64,000 nt of DNA from Clostridium sp. CAG:628 (lineage in GTDB: Bacteria; Bacillota_I; Bacilli_A; RF39; UBA660), in contig FR902240.1 of NCBI GenBank assembly GCA_000438415.1, forward strand, positions 52,307 through 116,306. Reading direction: 5' to 3'. The position numbers and the translations under genes are program-made. Of this stretch, positions 4,850-63,344 are shown piece after piece. Within the stretch, counting starts at the first letter, position 1. Every line of letters begins with the position of its first letter. The notes below the pieces were generated by a model. The model did not search any database. It was given only the letters and a program-made list of their open reading frames with translations, and was not told the DNA's origin.

Positions 4850-5095
4850 CTTGACAAACAACTTAAAAGTAACTATAATTTAAGTATATTATTTATTTAG
4901 AGGAGTAATGTATTTACTATTTATAGAGAGTTAACGATAGGTGTAAGTTAATATTAAGTGGTACATGAAGACACTAAACTAGAAAGTAATCGTAATTTCT
5001 GCGTTAAAGAATTAAAGAGTATAGTATGACTATAAATTAAGGTGGTACCGCTGCTAACAAGCAGTCCTTAAGTTTATAGTCTTTTTATTTTAAGG
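4850..5095 (+). promoter_or_regulatory. T-box leader of aspS, putative Asp GAC specifier, with the conserved T-box sequence and a terminator hairpin
   Basis: AAGGTGGTACCGCTG (T-box consensus AGGGTGGNACCGCG) lies at about 5038..5055. It is embedded in the hairpin GACTATAAATTAAGG...CCTTAAGTTTATAGTC followed by TTTTTATTTT. GAC sits in the loop at 5026..5028. Confidence 0.65.
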
Positions 5096-7839: not shown

Positions 7840-8340
7840 ATGACAAGAGTTAAAGGTGGAACAGTTTCAAGAGCAAGAAGAAAGAAAGTTTTAAACAGAG
7901 CAAAAGGTTATTTTGGAAGTAAACATAGACTTTATAAAACTGCTCAAGAACAATTAATGCACAGTGGTGTATATAGTTTCAATGATAGAAAGAAAAATAA
8001 AGGTAACTTCAGAAAATTATGGATAACAAGAATTAATGCTGCTTGTAGAATGAATAATATAAGTTATTCTAAGTTCATTGATGGTCTTAATAAAGCTGGA
8101 GTTGAAATCAATAGAAAGATGCTTAGTGAATTAGCAATTCAAGATATGAATGAATTTAATAAACTTGTAGAAGTTGCTAAAAAAGCATTAGAAAATGGAA
8201 AAGTTGAGACTGAAACTAAAACTGAAAGTAATGATTTAAGTAGTAAAACAGTTGCTGAATTAAAAGCACTTGCTAAAGAAAAAGGTATAGAAGGTTACAC
8301 AACTATGAAAAAAGCAGATTTATTAAATGCTTTAAAATAG
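7840..8340 (+). CDS. rplT: 50S ribosomal protein L20 with a C-terminal extension of about 45 aa ending in a Rho-N-like motif
   Basis: L20 core [18 protein letters not shown]...[11 protein letters not shown]. The extra tail ends ...[30 protein letters not shown]. Confidence 0.9.
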
Positions 8341-8365: not shown

Positions 8366-8423
8366 TTAATTTGCATTTCTGTACCAAATATGGTATAATA
8401 TAAACAACTAAGGGGGAATGTAA

Positions 8424-37670: not shown

Positions 37671-38312
37671 ATGGACATACTAGTAGTTTTATTTAGAACA
37701 CTATTTTTCTACGTGTTTATATTAATAATTTATAGACTAATGGGTAAAAGAGAAGTAGGACAACTTTCTATTCAAGACTTAGTAGTAAGTATTTTAATTG
37801 CAGAAATGGTAGCAATAAGTATTGAAAACAAACATGACTCCATGTGGCTTACAATACTTCCAATAATTGTACTTGTTATATTAGAAATAGTGGCTAACTT
37901 TATTAGTTTAAAATTTAACTTTATAAGAAACATAATTGAAGGTAAACCTGCTTTAATAATAAATAAAGGTATAATTAATTTTAAAGAAATGATTAAACAA
38001 AGATATACTTTAGATGACTTACTTATGGAACTAAGAAGTAAAGATATAAAAAATTTAGCTGATGTAGAATATGCTGTACTTGAAAATAATGGAAAATTAA
38101 GTGTATTTAAATATAACTTTTTAAAGATTAAAAGCGAGAATCCTTTTCCATTAATATTAGATGGTAAAATACAAACTAGTGCTTTAAAATATATTAACAA
38201 AGATAAGACTTGGCTTTTAAATTTAATAGGTAATAAAGATGTAAGCGAAATATTTTATTGTTTCTATAAAAACAACAAGGCATATATAATAGATAAAAAA
38301 GATGTTAAATAG
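37671..38312 (+). CDS. DUF421 (YetF/YdfS-like) membrane protein
   Basis: YRLMGKREVGQLSIQDLVVSILIAEM and the C-terminal VEYAVLENNGKLSVF closely parallel B. subtilis YetF (VEYAILETNGMVSVL). Confidence 0.65.
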   Translation: MDILVVLFRTLFFYVFILIIYRLMGKREVGQLSIQDLVVSILIAEMVAISIENKHDSMWLTILPIIVLVILEIVANFISLKFNFIRNIIEGKPALIINKGIINFKEMIKQRYTLDDLLMELRSKDIKNLADVEYAVLENNGKLSVFKYNFLKIKSENPFPLILDGKIQTSALKYINKDKTWLLNLIGNKDVSEIFYCFYKNNKAYIIDKKDVK

Positions 38313-38471
38313 TACTTGAAAAGAGTACTATTTTTTTGTATAATTAATTTAGTTAAGGTAGAAGGAGGATATGTTATATGACTAATAAAATTAATAATAT
38401 AATAAATTATATGTCTTTACCTTTAGTGCAAAGTAAAGTACTAAAGGGGGGGGTATTATCTTCTAACTAAC
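38311..38471 (+). repeat. Degenerate copy 1 of a ~160-bp repeat (terminator-like hairpin, extended -10, strong SD, start of a small ORF), about 80% identical to 53598..53761
   Basis: Shared blocks are AGTACTTGAA..AGAGTACT, AGTTAAGGTAGAAGGAGGATATGT.ATATGACTAATAA ... and the identical 20-mer GTATTATCTTCTAACTAACT. The copy-1 small ORF is broken by a TAA after 8 codons. Confidence 0.6.
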
Positions 38472-39313
<842 letters not shown>

Positions 39314-39379
39314 AACTAATTTTAATTTGATTTTTAATCACATTATCTTGTTTTGAGAGAACAATTATGGTATAATTAT

Positions 39380-39487
39380 TTTGTAGGTGACGATAGCAAA
39401 GTGGACACACCTGTTCCCATCTCGAACACAGAAGTTAAGCACTTTAACGGCGAAGATAGTGTAAGCGAAAATAGCAAGTTGCCTACT
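39380..39487 (+). rRNA. rrf: 5S rRNA (rather short, with a reduced helix IV/V region)
   Basis: TTTGTAGGTGACGATAGCAAAGTGGACACACCTGTTCCCATCTCGAACACAGAAGTTAAGC... aligns with the Firmicute 5S 5' two-thirds. The terminal helix pairs GTAGG with CCTAC. Confidence 0.75.
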
Positions 39488-39556: not shown

Positions 39557-39633
39557 GGCGTTATTGGTGAAGTGGTTAACACGCCAGATTGTGGCTCTGG
39601 TATGCGTGGGTTCGATTCCCACATAGCGCCCCA
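39557..39633 (+). tRNA. tRNA-His (GTG anticodon) with encoded G-1 and CCA
   Basis: Cloverleaf: acceptor GCGTTAT/ATAGCGC plus an extra 5' G pairing with discriminator C73; anticodon stem CCAGA/TCTGG; loop TTGTGGC; T-arm GTGGG-TTCGATT-CCCAC; CCA encoded. Confidence 0.9.
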
Positions 39634-52845: not shown

Positions 52846-52946
52846 ACTTACTTTGTTTTATTTTATGTAACATAATGTAAATATTAACAAAAACTACCTT
52901 GTATAAATTCCAAAAATTTACTATAATAATTATAGTAGGTGACAAT

Positions 52947-53591
52947 ATGAAGAATAAAAAGGAAAAAAGTACATTATATTTTATAACTAAGACAATATCT
53001 TGGTGTGTAATGGCAATATTGGTAATAATTGGTTTATTTTTAGTAAGTTATATTGCTATAAATAAAATAGCACTTGCTAAAGGCCAAAAACAACCTCTTG
53101 GTTTATATACAATAATAAGTCCTAGTATGACTCCAAATATACAAGTATATGATGTAGTATTTATAGTTAAAACAAATCCAGAAGATATAGAAGTTGGAGA
53201 TGTAATCTCATACTATAGTACTAATGCATTCTTTGGTAATACTCCAATAACACACCGTGTAGTAGAAAAATTTAGTACTAATCAAGGTTACACCTTTAGA
53301 ACAAAAGGAGATGCTAACCCAGTTGTAGATAACGAAATAATAAGTGAAGATAATGTTATAGGTGTTGAAAAAATGATAATACCACAACTAGGAAGAGTAC
53401 AATTCTTTTTAGCAAGCAAATTCGGTTGGTTCACAATAATACTAATACCAGCTGTAGGTGTAATTATATATGATATAATAAAATTAATTAAATTAATAAG
53501 AGTAAAAAATAAAATGTCTAAAGTAAAACAAGAAGAAGTAGATGAAGACTTACCAACACGAAAAAGAAAAAGAACAACATCAGTAAAATAA
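52947..53591 (+). CDS. sipW: Signal peptidase I, SipW type (archaeal/ER-like)
   Basis: ISPSMTPN (SxSMxP), ITHRVVEK and KGDANP, plus a C-terminal TM anchor. This matches the B. subtilis SipW pattern. Confidence 0.75.
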   Translation: MKNKKEKSTLYFITKTISWCVMAILVIIGLFLVSYIAINKIALAKGQKQPLGLYTIISPSMTPNIQVYDVVFIVKTNPEDIEVGDVISYYSTNAFFGNTPITHRVVEKFSTNQGYTFRTKGDANPVVDNEIISEDNVIGVEKMIIPQLGRVQFFLASKFGWFTIILIPAVGVIIYDIIKLIKLIRVKNKMSKVKQEEVDEDLPTRKRKRTTSVK

Positions 53592-53597
53592 TTAATT

Positions 53598-53761
53598 AAG
53601 AGTACTTGAATAAAGTATTCTTTTTTGATAAAATTAAACTAGTTAAGGTAGAAGGAGGATATGTAATATGACTAATAATTATGTAAATAAATTAAGTTAT
53701 ATATCTTCACTTATAGTACAAAATAAAGTACCAAATATGGAGTATTATCTTCTAACTAACT
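53598..53761 (+). repeat. Copy 2 (intact) of the ~160-bp repeat: hairpin after sipW, extended -10, strong SD AAGGTAGAAGGAGGAT, small ORF
   Basis: See copy 1 at 38311..38471. Confidence 0.6.
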
Positions 53762-53829
53762 TAAAAGAAGAAAATTTTTTGCATGAAATAAAATGGATAG
53801 GTGAAGTCTACCCATTTTTTGTTGTGTAA
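53668..53829 (+). CDS. Small ORF (53 aa) between sipW and the tasA-like gene; function unknown
   Basis: MTNNYVNKLSYISSLIVQNKVPNMEYYLLTNLKEENFLHEIKWIGEVYPFFVV. A very strong SD lies 7 nt upstream. Its 5' half is conserved in the degenerate copy at 38378. Confidence 0.4.
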   Translation: MTNNYVNKLSYISSLIVQNKVPNMEYYLLTNLKEENFLHEIKWIGEVYPFFVV

Positions 53830-53847
53830 TAAAAGGAGTTCATGTTT

Positions 53848-55381
53848 ATGCAGAAAAAACAAACAATATTAGTAGTTGCTAGTTTACTAGTAGTAGTACT
53901 AAGTGTAACACTAGCATACTTTACAGCTCAAATAATAGGAGAAGGAAAGAATATTTCATTTTACAGCACAAATAATTGGAGAAGGGAAGAATATTTCAGT
54001 AAGTAGTGCTGACTTGAAAATAGTATTTACTGATACAGATGGTAATATTGAAGGAAGTAATATAACACCAGGATGGAGTAATAGTAAAACTTTTACAGTT
54101 AAAAACGAGTCAAATGGTACATATAAGTATGATATTATAATAAAAGATTTAGTAAATACTTTTAAAACTTATAAATACTTACAATATAAAATAACTAGTA
54201 CTGATGTTAGTTTATCTAATACAGAAGCTATAGACGAAGACACATGTAAAACTAAATCACTATGTAATTTAGGTTTCCCTACGTATAAGGTTATCTTTGG
54301 CTTAACTCAAGCACAATGTCAAGAACTTGTAAAAAAGCACTCTTTTTCTCATGCTTATGAAGAGTCAGATTATAGTGAAGATTTAACTAATAGAACTTGG
54401 GTAACTGAACTAATTAAACCGATAAATAACTGGGTAAAGTTCGGAAAATATCAGAATGATTTGATTGGATATAGAGGATATAAATCAACCACAGATACTT
54501 CATATCACGAATATTCTACTATGGATGAATGTACATCAGCAAGTAGTTATAATACAAATTGTACTGAATATAAATATGCAAATACTGGTGATGATATATA
54601 CTGGAGAATAATAAGAACAAACTCAGATGGTAGTGTAAGACTTCTTTACCACGGTACAAGTACAACAACAACAGAAGCATATATAGGAGCATCAGCATTT
54701 AATACAACATATAATAACCCAATGTATGTAGGATATATGTATGGAACAAGTGGTTCATTAGTTAACAATAGAACAAATACAAATAATAGTACAATAAAAG
54801 GAATAATAGATACATGGTATGAAAATAATCTAAAAATAAACTATACAAAATACCTAAGTACAACAGCAGTATACTGTAATGATAGAAGTAACCCAGCAGG
54901 TGGATATAACACTGATAAAAAGACAGAATTCTACTATGGTGGATATACAAGACTAGGAACAAATAAAACACCAACCTATGACTGTACAAATGTAAATGAT
55001 AAATTCACAGTAGACACAAGTACAGGAAATGGAAAGTTAACATATCCCATAGCATTAATGACAGCAGACGAAGTAAGTTTTGCAGGTGGAGTATATTTTA
55101 CAAGCGCAGAAACATGGTATTATAAAAATAGTGCAAAGGGTAGCTCAACAGGCTCAACCTTGTGGTGGTTGTTGTCTCCTTCCAATTGGAATAACGGCAG
55201 CGCTAACGTGTTCCTCATGCACGGTTCGTCCGGCCATGGCAACTTGTCCAGCGTCTACGTCTTCATCAACGCGCATGGTGTGCGTCCCGCCATTTCTCTC
55301 AAATCTTGTGTCAAGACAAGTGGAGGAGATGGCTCGGCAAGTGACCCATACACAATAAAAGAAACTACAAGTGGGTGCTAA
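53848..55381 (+). pseudogene. TasA/camelysin-like secreted protein with a SipW-cognate signal peptide and a C-terminal DUF6273-like module. The frame is interrupted by a 40-bp tandem duplication; the downstream part is the 54014..55381 ORF.
   Basis: ATG 53848 has an AAAGGAG RBS and encodes MQKKQTILVVASLLVVVLSVTLAYFTAQIIGEGKNIS. The ..TLAYFT.. matches the SipW-cognate signal class of TasA/CalY. Removing one 40-bp unit joins this in frame to ...VSSADLKIVFTDTDGN. The C-terminal WWLLSP...GVRPAISL resembles DUF6273. Confidence 0.55.
53921..54000 (+). repeat. Direct tandem duplication, 2 x 40 bp (4 mismatches), inside the signal-peptide region of the tasA-like gene
   Basis: TTACAGCTCAAATAATAGGAGAAGGAAAGAATATTTCATT / TTACAGCACAAATAATTGGAGAAGGGAAGAATATTTCAGT. 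40 is not a multiple of 3, giving a +1 frameshift and a stop at 54004. Confidence 0.8.
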
Positions 55382-55497: not shown

Positions 55498-55703
55498 TAA
55501 TGATATAATTATACTTAATTTCTATATACTTCATGTTTTTTTATTAAATATTTTGTTCTTAAAATTGTTGATAAAAGTATGATTATGTGGTAGAATATTA
55601 GGTGCTTTGAAAAATAAACACCTTTAGGGATTTTACTTGCTAGTGCTTAATTGTGCAAGTATTTAGAACTATTGGGAAGAAAAACGAAAGGAAGAGTGAT
55701 ATT

Positions 55704-56609
55704 ATGACAGTTGTGTCAAAAAGTTATTTATTAGAAGCAGGTGTTCATTTTGGACATCAAACTAAAAGATGGAATCCTAAAATGAAGGAGTATATCTTTG
55801 CAGCAAGAGATGATATTTATATTATCGATTTAGAGAAAACAGTAAGAAAGTTAGAAGAAGCTTATAGTGCTTTATATGAAGCATGTAAGGATGGTGGAAA
55901 AGCTTTATTTGTTGGAACTAAGAAACAAGCTAGTGAAGCTAGTATTGAAGAGGCTACTAGATGTGGAGGATACTATGTAACTGAAAGATGGTTAGGTGGT
56001 ACTCTTACAAACTTTAAGACTATTAGAGAAAGAATTAATAGACTAGATGAAATTGAGAAAATGAAAAGTGAAGGTAAGTTTGAATTACTTCCTAAAAAAG
56101 AAGTTGCTAAACTACAAAAGGAATATGATAAATTAAATAAGATTCTTTGTGGTATTAGAGAAATGAAAAAATTACCTCAAGCAGTTATAGTAACTGACCC
56201 TAGAATAGAATTAAATGCAGTTAGAGAGGCTAAAAAATTAGGTATTCCTACATTTGGTATTGTTGATACTAATAGTGATCCTGATTTAGTAGATTATGTT
56301 ATTCCTGGAAATGATGATGCTGTAAGAGCAGTTAAAGTTGTACTTGGAGTACTTGCTAATGCTGTGTGTGAAGGAAATAATTTACCACTTGATGATTATA
56401 TAACTGAAGAAGAATTTGTTAAACCTAAAAAGAAAGAAACAAAAAAAGAAGAAGTAACTGTTACTGTTAAAGAAGTAGAAGAACCAGTTATGGAAGAAGC
56501 TAAATATGAAGATATGAAACTTAGTGAATTAAAAGCTATAGCTAAAGAACAAGGTGTTAAAGGTTACAGTTCTATGAAAAAAGAAGAACTATTAAATATT
56601 TTAAAGTAA
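55704..56609 (+). CDS. rpsB: 30S ribosomal protein S2 with a C-terminal extension of about 55 aa ending in a Rho-N-like motif
   Basis: [27 protein letters not shown]... S2 core. The tail ends ...[48 protein letters not shown]-17-TAGAAT promoter at about 55570..55598 with a structured leader. Confidence 0.9.
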
Positions 56610-62991: not shown

Positions 62992-63344
62992 GGGGCTGTA
63001 TTGATTCGACAGAGTAGTTGTACGTATGGATACAAGTAGTAGGCGTACTTAAAACGCAAAATAAAATAATCGGAAACGATTTTAATTTTGCTCCTAGTTT
63101 TGCCTAATTAATGGTACTGGAGGTTCAGTTTATTCTTTGTCCATGAGAATAAGTGCTGGACTCATAAAAATGGACTATACTATATAATTGTTTAGGTTAT
63201 ATAATGAAATTATTCTAAACTTATGCTAGTACTGGAATGTTGGCTCTCCATGGTACTAGATGAAAATTTAAACCAACTAAACTTGTAAAAACGTCTGTAT
63301 GGTTGATGCTTTGGACACGAAGTCGCACTTCGTCAGCTCCACCA
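62992..63344 (+). ncRNA. ssrA: tmRNA (SsrA), with a predicted tag peptide (A)GNDFNFAPSFA
   Basis: The 5' end GGGGCTGTATTGATTCGACAGAGTAG matches GGGGGCGTTACGGATTCGACAGGGATAG of B. subtilis. The acceptor stem has a G3:U70 pair and ends ...CAGCTCC-A-CCA. The tag frame GGA AAC GAT TTT AAT TTT GCT CCT AGT TTT GCC TAA follows AACGCAAAATAAAATAATC. TTGATA-17-TATAAT promoter at 62951..62977. A terminator follows. Confidence 0.8.

Follow-up and report, generated by a model that had tools for sequence, protein, structure and literature searches.

The DNA stretch considered here (the window) comprises 64 kb of contig FR902240.1 from Clostridium sp. CAG:628, with a GC content of 26.7%. The gene for a SipW-type (archaeal-type) signal peptidase I (52944-53591) is followed on the forward strand by the gene for a secreted protein (53842-55381), and a conserved element (53598-53829) with a very strong Shine-Dalgarno (SD) sequence and an open reading frame (ORF) of 53 codons is located between them. 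An earlier interpretation of the same DNA, made from its letters alone and referred to here as the sequence-only reading, considered the element to be a real unit, such as a small regulatory or accessory protein, or a leader peptide of the matrix operon. By comparison of homologous loci, it is identified as one copy of a predicted promoter-leader cassette which is placed in front of the members of a very large family of paralogous secreted proteins. The host is a prevalent, uncultured, AT-rich human-gut Firmicute. The 53-codon ORF appears to be a leader and not the gene for a small protein, and in most copies it contains a run of G residues which might switch the expression of the gene downstream.

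Architecture of the Element

All features of the window described below are on the forward strand. The element (copy 1) starts with a hairpin at 53598-53622 (-9.3 kcal/mol, z -3.9), which resembles a terminator for read-through from sipW and holds the -35 hexamer in its loop. The promoter is of the sigma-70 type (53606-53634), with TTGAAT at 53606, a spacing of 17 nt and a TG-extended TAAAAT at 53634. It was the sole promoter-like site in 53450-53950, and no second one was identified before the ATG of the secreted-protein gene, designated the cargo gene in the following. Near the predicted 5' end of the transcript, the 5' box AGTTAAGGTAGAAGGAGGATAT (53641-53662) contains the SD GAAGGAGG at 53651-53658, and AAGGTAGAAGGAGGAT was found at 53646-53661. 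The 22-nt core has two exact matches in the window, where 0.00 are expected; the second belongs to a truncated copy at 38310-38472 (copy 2). A short ATG-TAA "minicistron" (53661-53666) precedes the ATG which opens the 53-codon ORF (53668-53829). Hairpin, extended -10 and ORF had all been recognized by the sequence-only reading and were confirmed.

Within the ORF, a palindrome, TAGTAC-N8-GTACCA (53714-53733), is predicted to form the hairpin P2 by both single-sequence and alignment folds. It is followed by a variable site (53734-53747), which reads AAATATGGAGTATT in copy 1 and contains a run of seven to eleven G residues (G7-G11) in two thirds of the listed copies, and by the invariant box TCTTCTAACTAAC (53748-53760). 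This box supplies a TAA stop for each of the two alternative frames, can pair with the 5' box (5 + 7 pairs), and encodes LLTN, which is invariant in 48 protein-derived homologues. The final 13 codons contain an attenuator-like hairpin, AAAATGGATAGG-TGAAG-TCTACCCATTTT, with a T-run (53790-53821), a feature absent from the sequence-only reading. The SD AAAGGAG and the ATG(s) of the cargo gene are located at 53832-53850. The cargo protein carries a signal peptide starting with MQKKQTILVVASLLVVVLSVTLAYFTAQ, and its gene is split into ORFs of 54 and 455 amino acids in the window.

Copies of the Cassette

Further copies were searched for in contigs of human-gut metagenomes by a DNA pattern which required only the SD box and the TCTTCTAACTAAC box and was blind to the ORF. 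The scan resulted in at least 117 stretches, and after pooling with other loci at least 144 copies behind at least 41 upstream flanks were obtained; fractions over 144, 119, 108 or 92 copies given below refer to the matches listed. With its own promoter, SD and ATG in this number of copies, the element is a real conserved unit, as had been proposed.

The same order of parts was identified in 108 unique copies. The sequence AGTTAAG(G/A)TAGAAGGAGGA, including the SD, is followed by a variable spacer of 5-10 nt, the invariant TATGAC, a moderately variable stretch of about 45 nt, the hairpin TAGTAC-N8-GTACTA, the variable purine-rich site and the TCTTCTAACTAAC box. Downstream of the box, a hypervariable linker which occurs in three unrelated modules leads to ATGGATAG(G/A)-N5-TCTA(C/T)CCA, a run of five to six T residues, about 10 nt, and the SD and ATG of the cargo gene. 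Upstream of the 5' box, the only invariant columns in variable DNA are CTTG(A) of the -35 and T..TA.A.T of the TG-extended -10. The upstream hairpin is present in about 73% of these copies, with changes on both sides (GC, AU and UA exchanging for each other) at five of eight pairs; in the remaining copies, a different inverted repeat, or none, surrounds the same -35. The minicistron, also described by the sequence-only reading, is present in copy 1 as a chance feature and was rejected as a conserved one, since in most other copies the spacer between SD and ATG reads ATATAA or is shorter; CACAAA and ACA... are further variants.

The identical 53-amino acid ORF was found in a different context on many human-gut contigs, where the genes pheS-pheT-LemA-DUF2207-HD are followed by the element, a gene for a 576-amino acid protein and lepA. 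From the leader ATG to the first approximately 100 cargo codons, this DNA corresponds to that of the window apart from a few single-base changes in the cargo gene and a 40-nt duplication (see below); its leader differs from the window leader at a few bases. Further homologues were identified behind a gene for an MscS protein, a gene for a LytTR regulator and others, and at the sipW locus itself other assemblies contain G9-type or other alleles between identical flanks. Since the same cassette occurs behind at least 41 upstream flanks, its position between sipW and a supposed tasA-like gene is incidental. From the earlier proposal of a leader peptide of the matrix operon, the leader peptide is close to the best reading, and a function specific for sipW/tasA is not.

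Among the species representatives of GTDB, no match was obtained with the 22-nt 5' box, and a gapped pattern gave one match, on a contig of a metagenome-assembled genome named "uncultured Clostridiales bacterium". The leader matched nothing in Rfam better than E = 0.17 at permissive thresholds, far below the gathering scores.

Several loci share only one flank with each other. In comparison to window positions 53.6-56.6 kb, the loci L009, L010 and L012 show the MscS gene followed by the cassette and then by rpsB or by lexA, and in the window itself the order is sipW, cassette and rpsB. The cassettes may either mediate rearrangements between strains or cause chimeric joins of metagenome contigs. 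In practice, the cassette is a repeat at which metagenome assemblies of these loci break and are probably mis-joined.

The 53-Codon Frame Is Not Conserved as a Protein Sequence

Conservation of the frame in homologous loci, named beforehand as decisive for a protein gene, was not found: of the 119 copies in the ORF-blind sample, 52 have already lost the frame when the TAA box is reached. For 92 non-redundant copies located before the main cargo family, the ORF is full (at least 50 codons) in 33, stops at 39-49 codons in 26 and at 27-32 codons in 33, so that only about one in three of the listed copies retains the frame at full length. The three classes end at defined places, the full ORFs just past the T-run, those of 39-49 codons inside the hairpin, and those of 27-32 codons in the box. 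The final 8-10 codons are freely truncated through loop variants and 1-nt indels. At the YetF locus, which is the locus of copy 2, eight assemblies of the window's species have small ORFs of 29-31, 44, 45 or 53 codons in front of an intact cargo gene for 493-576 amino acids.

The substitutions showed no sign of selection on a peptide. The ratio of non-synonymous to synonymous rates (omega) was about 0.9 between the ATG and P2, with a variability of 0.091, 0.076 and 0.081 at the three codon positions and thus no excess at the third; synonymous and non-synonymous changes were observed at 14:45, compared to 37:132 possible, which is the chance expectation. The peptide stretches which are conserved correspond to nucleic-acid elements, IVQNKVL to P2, LLTN to the box and KWIGEVYPFF to the hairpin.

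A profile search of 1.84 billion representative proteins gave 27 matches, all of them full or truncated versions of the element itself, and the 53-amino acid peptide had no relatives in Pfam, NCBIfam or PDB. AlphaFold2 (AF2) suggested two helices at low confidence (pLDDT 60, pTM 0.22). In public protein data, 575 clusters of ORFs of 52-55 amino acids are present, a set which was ascertained through ORF calling. Even if the switch proposed below is wrong, these clusters represent no protein family, and annotation as a family should be avoided. A small protein with a regulatory or accessory role, as considered by the sequence-only reading, is contradicted by these results. Since the G-run breaks the small frame in most copies, the cassette looks like an on/off switch of expression rather than a protein gene.

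Probable Translation of the Leader ORF

The ORF NEVERTHELESS is nevertheless probably translated, and the support for this is moderate rather than strong. Throughout the 108 unique copies, the SD and TATG remain unchanged, in contrast to the variable spacer which separates them. Between ATG and P2, where lengths of 61, 64 and 67 nt occur, frame 0 is open in all 73 unique sequences and the other two frames are closed; indels in this region are of 3 nt only, with the exception of L099, which carries a 1-nt deletion. Of 46 unique linkers, from three modules, which join the box to the hairpin, 44 are open in frame 0, whereas frames 1 and 2 hold two to five stops each. In addition, all 48 listed copies in which the longest G-run does not exceed five residues keep the frame between the ATG and the box.

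A G-Run at the Variable Site

For 92 of the 144 listed copies, a G7-G11 run was identified at the variable site; by longest run, 29 copies have G8, 40 have G9, 18 have G10 and three have G11. The run is largely confined to this position, since 94 of 95 runs of at least seven G residues in 1.19 Mb of fetched loci lie there, and the G8 of copy 2 is the only such run in the 64-kb window. Among 96 listed copies with six or more G residues, 37 are in frame and 59 are out of frame, G9 being mostly in frame and G8 and G10 mostly out, and every shifted frame ends in the TAA box after 27-32 codons.

The number of G residues differs between alleles of the same locus which have no or one other difference: L032 (G8) and L094 (G9), L023 (G10) and L127 (G9), and the interrupted runs of L027 (G6AG3), L106 (G8AG3) and L077 (G9AG3). 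L017 (G11) and L020 (G10) share a leader allele and differ in the G number. The cargo gene was intact behind 18 of 20 full leaders, 12 of 14 leaders stopped in the hairpin and 18 of 21 stopped in the box, which shows that the out-of-frame copies are not decaying loci, since the cargo is equally intact behind all leader types. Copy 1 contains no G-run and has the in-frame sequence ATATGGAG; it is a "locked" in-frame allele with a broken cargo gene.

The single run of at least seven G residues outside the leader site was found in L010 (6781-6787), where a G7 is located directly before an ATG (GAATGGGGGGGATTAATATG). This could be another SD region which is sensitive to slippage.

Hairpins of the Leader

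The attenuator-like hairpin and its T5-6 run were identified in every listed copy. The arms are conserved, and the 5-nt loop between them varies freely, stop codons included. In modules other than the commonest one, the hairpin has a predicted stability of -10.5 to -12.6 kcal/mol, and a terminator-like score was obtained in L017. P2 was paired in 95% of cells, mostly by invariant pairs or with G-U changes.

The palindrome (A)GTAC-N7-9-GTAC(T) is present twice per cassette, around the -35 and inside the leader ORF (53602-53621 and 53714-53733 in copy 1, 38311-38330 and 38424-38443 in copy 2). The two sites could be an operator pair for a dimeric DNA-binding protein, instead of or besides forming RNA hairpins. 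In some cassettes, the first cargo gene codes for an XRE-type helix-turn-helix (HTH) protein (5874-6119 in L017).

A Proposed Translation-Coupled Switch

The order of the parts fits a translation-coupled attenuator with a reversibly frameshifted ORF. In the mechanism which we propose, transcription would start a few bases upstream of AGTTAAGG, and a ribosome would load at the 5' end, on the near-perfect SD, and translate the short leader ORF, the peptide product of which would be irrelevant. The ORF runs into or through the hairpin and U-run placed between the sole promoter and the cargo gene. When the frame is kept, the ribosome would reach the hairpin and hinder its folding, so that transcription reads through into the cargo gene; release of the ribosome beside the cargo SD may also help. 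The same would hold for every in-frame form, with a stop in the 5' arm, within the loop or past the T-run. In most copies, slippage by one G in the G8-G10 run in the middle of the ORF would shift the frame, and the shifted ribosome would stop at the TCTTCTAACTAAC box about 30 nt before the hairpin, which could then fold and turn the cargo gene down. From these steps it would follow that each paralogue is switched independently, in the manner of a contingency locus.

That the leader ORF is translated, overlaps an attenuator and switches cargo expression by slippage in the G-run is given a probability of about 0.45, a little below even odds. The wider proposal is put forward more tentatively and with more doubt than confidence, namely a portable cassette of promoter, ORF, poly-G, stop trap and attenuator in front of tens of paralogues, each of which would be toggled independently by one-base slippage in the upstream ORF through translation-coupled read-through.

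A number of observations weigh against the proposed switch. In the commonest module, to which copy 1 belongs, the attenuator hairpin is weak (-7.3 kcal/mol, z -1.1), an A.C mismatch is present in the hairpin of 83 of 108 listed copies, and a consensus terminator scan of the window did not call it. No compensatory covariation was found in the helices P1, P2 and the attenuator, and only the upstream hairpin was changed on both sides; since the columns of the leader helices do not vary, for two of the three partly as a result of their inclusion in the search pattern, this test is compatible with the helices and uninformative. The in-frame share of G-run copies is 39%, a value near the 33% which an irrelevant frame would give, and the G numbers which were compared come from assembled consensus contigs of different samples and not from one clonal population. 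For translation, stop-creating substitutions in frame 0 are fewer than expected (1 of 77, against 3.7), which is the right direction without being significant, and upstream of the G-run there are only a few independent in-frame indels. Finally, ribosome-coupled attenuation is uncommon in Firmicutes such as B. subtilis, because the RNA polymerase outruns the ribosome.

Among the alternatives, the one which survives best is a structured 5' leader, untranslated or incidentally translated. Here, the SD would act as a ribosome-binding stabiliser of the mRNA and/or pair with the TCTTCT box, the hairpins would be RNA or DNA operator elements, the G-run would be a tolerated, slippage-prone purine stretch and the ORF a by-product. 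We consider this explanation unlikely, though a serious competitor. It accounts for the overlap of all conserved peptide stretches with nucleic-acid elements and for the lack of constraint on the amino acid level, but not for the invariance of the ATG, which keeps a functional spacing even though the spacer before it varies, nor for the three unrelated linker modules, in which frame 0 stays open and stops fill the other frames. The proposed helices were paired in 90% of cells, compared to 34-53% in slid controls, the pairs being invariant or changed on one side; however, Rfam gave no match, and covariation was absent from the leader helices. The 61% of G-run copies which are out of frame in spite of an intact cargo gene are in agreement with an irrelevant frame, and the upstream CUUCACC can pair with every G-rich or GGAG-type variant of the site; on the other side, all alleles without a G-run or with an interrupted run are in frame, and G8-G11 persists at one site in a genome of 27% GC. 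Stabilisation by the SD itself has a precedent, since in B. subtilis ribosomes at strong 5' SDs block RNase J1 (PMC5737220).

It is less likely still that the element is only a strong promoter and SD, the similarity being the shared 5' end of recently expanded paralogues homogenised by gene conversion, with ORF and G-run as passengers. Loci with unrelated flanks are near-identical in leader and cargo 5' end, one and the same locus carries very different, mosaic leader alleles in different samples, and the 40-nt duplication in the window cargo resembles a recombination scar, all of which are in line with this improbable explanation. However, the leader is also kept before cargo genes with unrelated 5' ends (the HTH gene followed by a gene for 819 amino acids, and a gene for 835 amino acids), where the replaced linkers still retain hairpin, T-run, box and open frame, and the conservation is not uniform but patterned, with promoter hexamers, SD, ATG, box and hairpin arms standing out.

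A genuine protein of about 53 amino acids, such as a regulator of the secreted family or an accessory factor to it, with many pseudogenised copies, is largely refuted and very improbable, since the 575 public clusters, the strong SD with its ATG and the two helices suggested by AF2 stand against the loss of the frame in about two thirds of unbiased copies, the freely truncated last 8-10 codons, an omega of about 0.9, the lack of homologues outside the element and of relatives in Pfam, NCBIfam and PDB, and the low confidence of the AF2 model itself.

If the proposed switch is true, an abundant uncultured gut Firmicute varies its set of secreted or surface proteins through a repeat in a leader ORF which is coupled to an attenuator, a mechanism unlike that of the classic contingency loci. 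The more than 140 natural alleles, with G6-G11, interrupted runs, three linker modules and weak or strong hairpins, represent a ready-made mutant series.

The Truncated Copy 2 and Its Junction with the 23S rRNA

Copy 2 adjoins a DUF421/YetF-like gene on the downstream side of the latter, and 152 nt (38294-38445) align to copy 1 at 78% identity. It consists of the hairpin (38310-38330), a promoter with TTGAAA at 38316 and TG-TATAAT at 38344, the 5' box (38351-38372), an ORF of 30 codons (38378-38470) and the TAA box (38459-38471). The ORF is out of frame because of the G8 run at 38446-38453, and its stop falls in the TAA box. The second copy past the YetF-like gene had been noticed by the sequence-only reading as decayed and as stopped after eight codons. 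The copy is there; it is a G8 out-of-frame allele truncated by an rRNA junction, and the stop follows only after 30 codons.

The homology to the cassette ends at 38472, and at 38473 a 3' fragment of the 23S rRNA of about 850 nt starts (38473-39319, Rfam model positions 2049-2912), followed by the 5S rRNA (39383-39487) and tRNA-His (39558-39633). Neither a 16S rRNA nor the 5' part of the 23S rRNA is present. As the native 23S rRNA reads ...GCAACAGGACGG, the microhomology at the junction amounts to at most 3 nt. The same G8 allele was found in the loci L019, L022 and L149-L157, where it is followed by the full leader and a gene for 543-561 amino acids. In other assemblies, the rRNA operon is located elsewhere, where a DUF402 gene, about 5.7 kb without genes and a gene for a 301-amino acid protein follow each other, and hisS lies downstream of the YetF locus, so that the two sides of the junction are separate loci. 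The junction would be either a strain-specific rearrangement or a chimeric assembly.

A whole-window Rfam match over model positions 1-2925 had suggested that the 5' box might be a degenerate 5' end of the 23S rRNA and copy 2 a "mini-23S". This was rejected, because a focused search aligns model positions 2049-2912 only, because all other assemblies of the allele run into a normal leader, and because the native 23S rRNA differs upstream of the junction.

In L141 (407-5641), an inovirus-like block with Zot and Rep_trans genes is located upstream of the gene for the 301-amino acid protein. In other assemblies, this position is occupied by the rRNA operon and tRNA-His.

The Cargo Genes and the Neighbouring Signal Peptidase

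The cargo is mostly a protein of 493-589 amino acids starting with MQKKQTILVVASLLVVVLSVTLAYFTAQIIG (the MQKKQ... family). Alternative cargos are the XRE-type HTH gene together with a gene for an 819-amino acid protein, or a gene for an 835-amino acid protein. The latter, in L118 (285-2792, reverse strand), has another N-terminus and the same C-terminal domain of about 330 amino acids as the MQKKQ family; motifs shared in this domain are YWRIIRTN, AVYCNDR, LMTADE, WWSLSP and RPAISL. More than 6400 homologues of the 576-amino acid cargo protein were identified in the protein collection, and the C-terminal domain common to the MQKKQ and 835-amino acid proteins, with more than 6400 relatives, has no Pfam model.

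Whole cargo proteins gave no match in Pfam or NCBIfam at E <= 0.1, and the cargo halves gave only weak matches in Pfam at E <= 10, none of them to a TasA/camelysin model (Peptidase_M73/TasA was looked for). Sequence and profile searches of PDB with the cargo found no match, and the AF2 model of the 576-amino acid protein was unusable (pLDDT 42). The designation of the cargo as tasA-like is therefore unsupported. The assignment of the other neighbour as sipW is supported, the gene product reaching 102 bits against TIGR02228 (cut-off 51.85) and 76 bits against the SipW equivalog, below its cut-off of 190. The cargo signal peptide ends in a ...LAYFTAQ motif, which we take to be reminiscent of SipW substrates.

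The window cargo carries an imperfect tandem duplication of 40 nt (53920-53958 and 53960-53998) in the region of the signal peptide and N-terminus, which had not been described by the sequence-only reading. It is the cause of the frameshift which splits the gene. The two repeats differ at three positions, all of them synonymous third positions, and the duplication was found in none of 147 related loci. It resembles a scar left by recombination between two alleles of paralogues.

Other Features of the Window

Downstream of the cargo gene, the gene for ribosomal protein S2 (55653-56609) has a C-terminal extension, for which the precomputed annotation of L009 gives the Pfam family Rho_N. Over its last 84 nt, it shares 81% identity with the 3' end (8256-8339) of an unrelated ORF of 166 amino acids (7840-8340). 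A repeat of about 43 nt resembling a promoter plus SD (TTGTACCAAATATGGTATAAT...GGGGGAA) is present in three copies before different genes (2041-2083, 8376-8418 and 20857-20899). An ordinary T-box leader (4889-5072) and the gene for tmRNA (62992-63344) both exceeded the Rfam gathering scores.

Comparison with Known Systems

In B. subtilis, the matrix operon has the order tapA-sipW-tasA, and we know of no accessory gene between sipW and tasA. The sequence-only reading had placed the element where tapA- or sinI-like genes are found in such operons, which does not agree with this order. The likeness to this operon is that in the window a SipW-type peptidase gene adjoins the gene of a secreted protein. 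In contrast, the cargo has no similarity to TasA/camelysin and the 53-amino acid ORF none to SinI or TapA in Pfam, NCBIfam or PDB, and the cassette is present at at least 40 other loci without sipW.

For Mycoplasma, the variable surface lipoprotein families vlp, vsp and vsa combine a conserved 5' region of promoter, leader and signal peptide with variable bodies, intragenomic recombination and homopolymer switching. In vlp, the poly-A tract is located in the promoter spacer, whereas the tract of the cassette lies in a leader ORF; proteins and lineage also differ.

The Bacillus STAB-SD sequences of cryIIIA and hbs are near-perfect SDs at the 5' end, at which a ribosome protects the mRNA from RNase J1 (PMC5737220, PMC3997798). 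A STAB-SD needs no ORF, whereas the SD of the cassette precedes an invariant ATG and a maintained open frame. For C. difficile, the surface protein CwpV is phase-variable, and the formation of a terminator in the 5' leader decides on its expression (PMC2784873). As described there, the cwpV switch is a site-specific DNA inversion by a recombinase, whereas the cassette is without inverted repeats or a recombinase of this kind and its proposed trigger is slippage together with translation.

Among the closest relatives are the translation-coupled attenuators pyrBI and rph-pyrE of E. coli, where, as is proposed for the cassette, an ORF whose peptide is irrelevant runs into or through the hairpin of an intrinsic terminator, and the stop of the ribosome sets read-through. 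For rph-pyrE, the position of the upstream stop relative to the attenuator sets pyrE expression, which is lowered by the rph-1 frameshift (PMC2784333). In the cassette, the frameshift would be reversible, since it would arise from a hypermutable G-run. The cassette further differs in its Firmicute host, in its weak hairpin and in showing no sign of a nucleotide-sensing pause site.

Simple-sequence-repeat contingency loci, for which general background is given in PMC6321876 and PMC5953494 and which also belong to the closest relatives, include the poly-G/C tracts of Campylobacter, Neisseria and Helicobacter and the poly-G tracts of Treponema tpr. The cassette shares with them the over-represented G8-G11 run, the length difference of one residue between otherwise identical alleles and the association with surface or secreted families. 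The known tracts are located inside the regulated gene, its promoter or a spacer, whereas the tract of the cassette lies in a separate leader ORF upstream, and in contrast to these loci the same cassette is replicated before tens of paralogues. A literature search for a switch of poly-G, leader ORF and attenuator, or for the cargo family, found nothing relevant. The combination of a contingency locus with a translation-coupled attenuator would be new.

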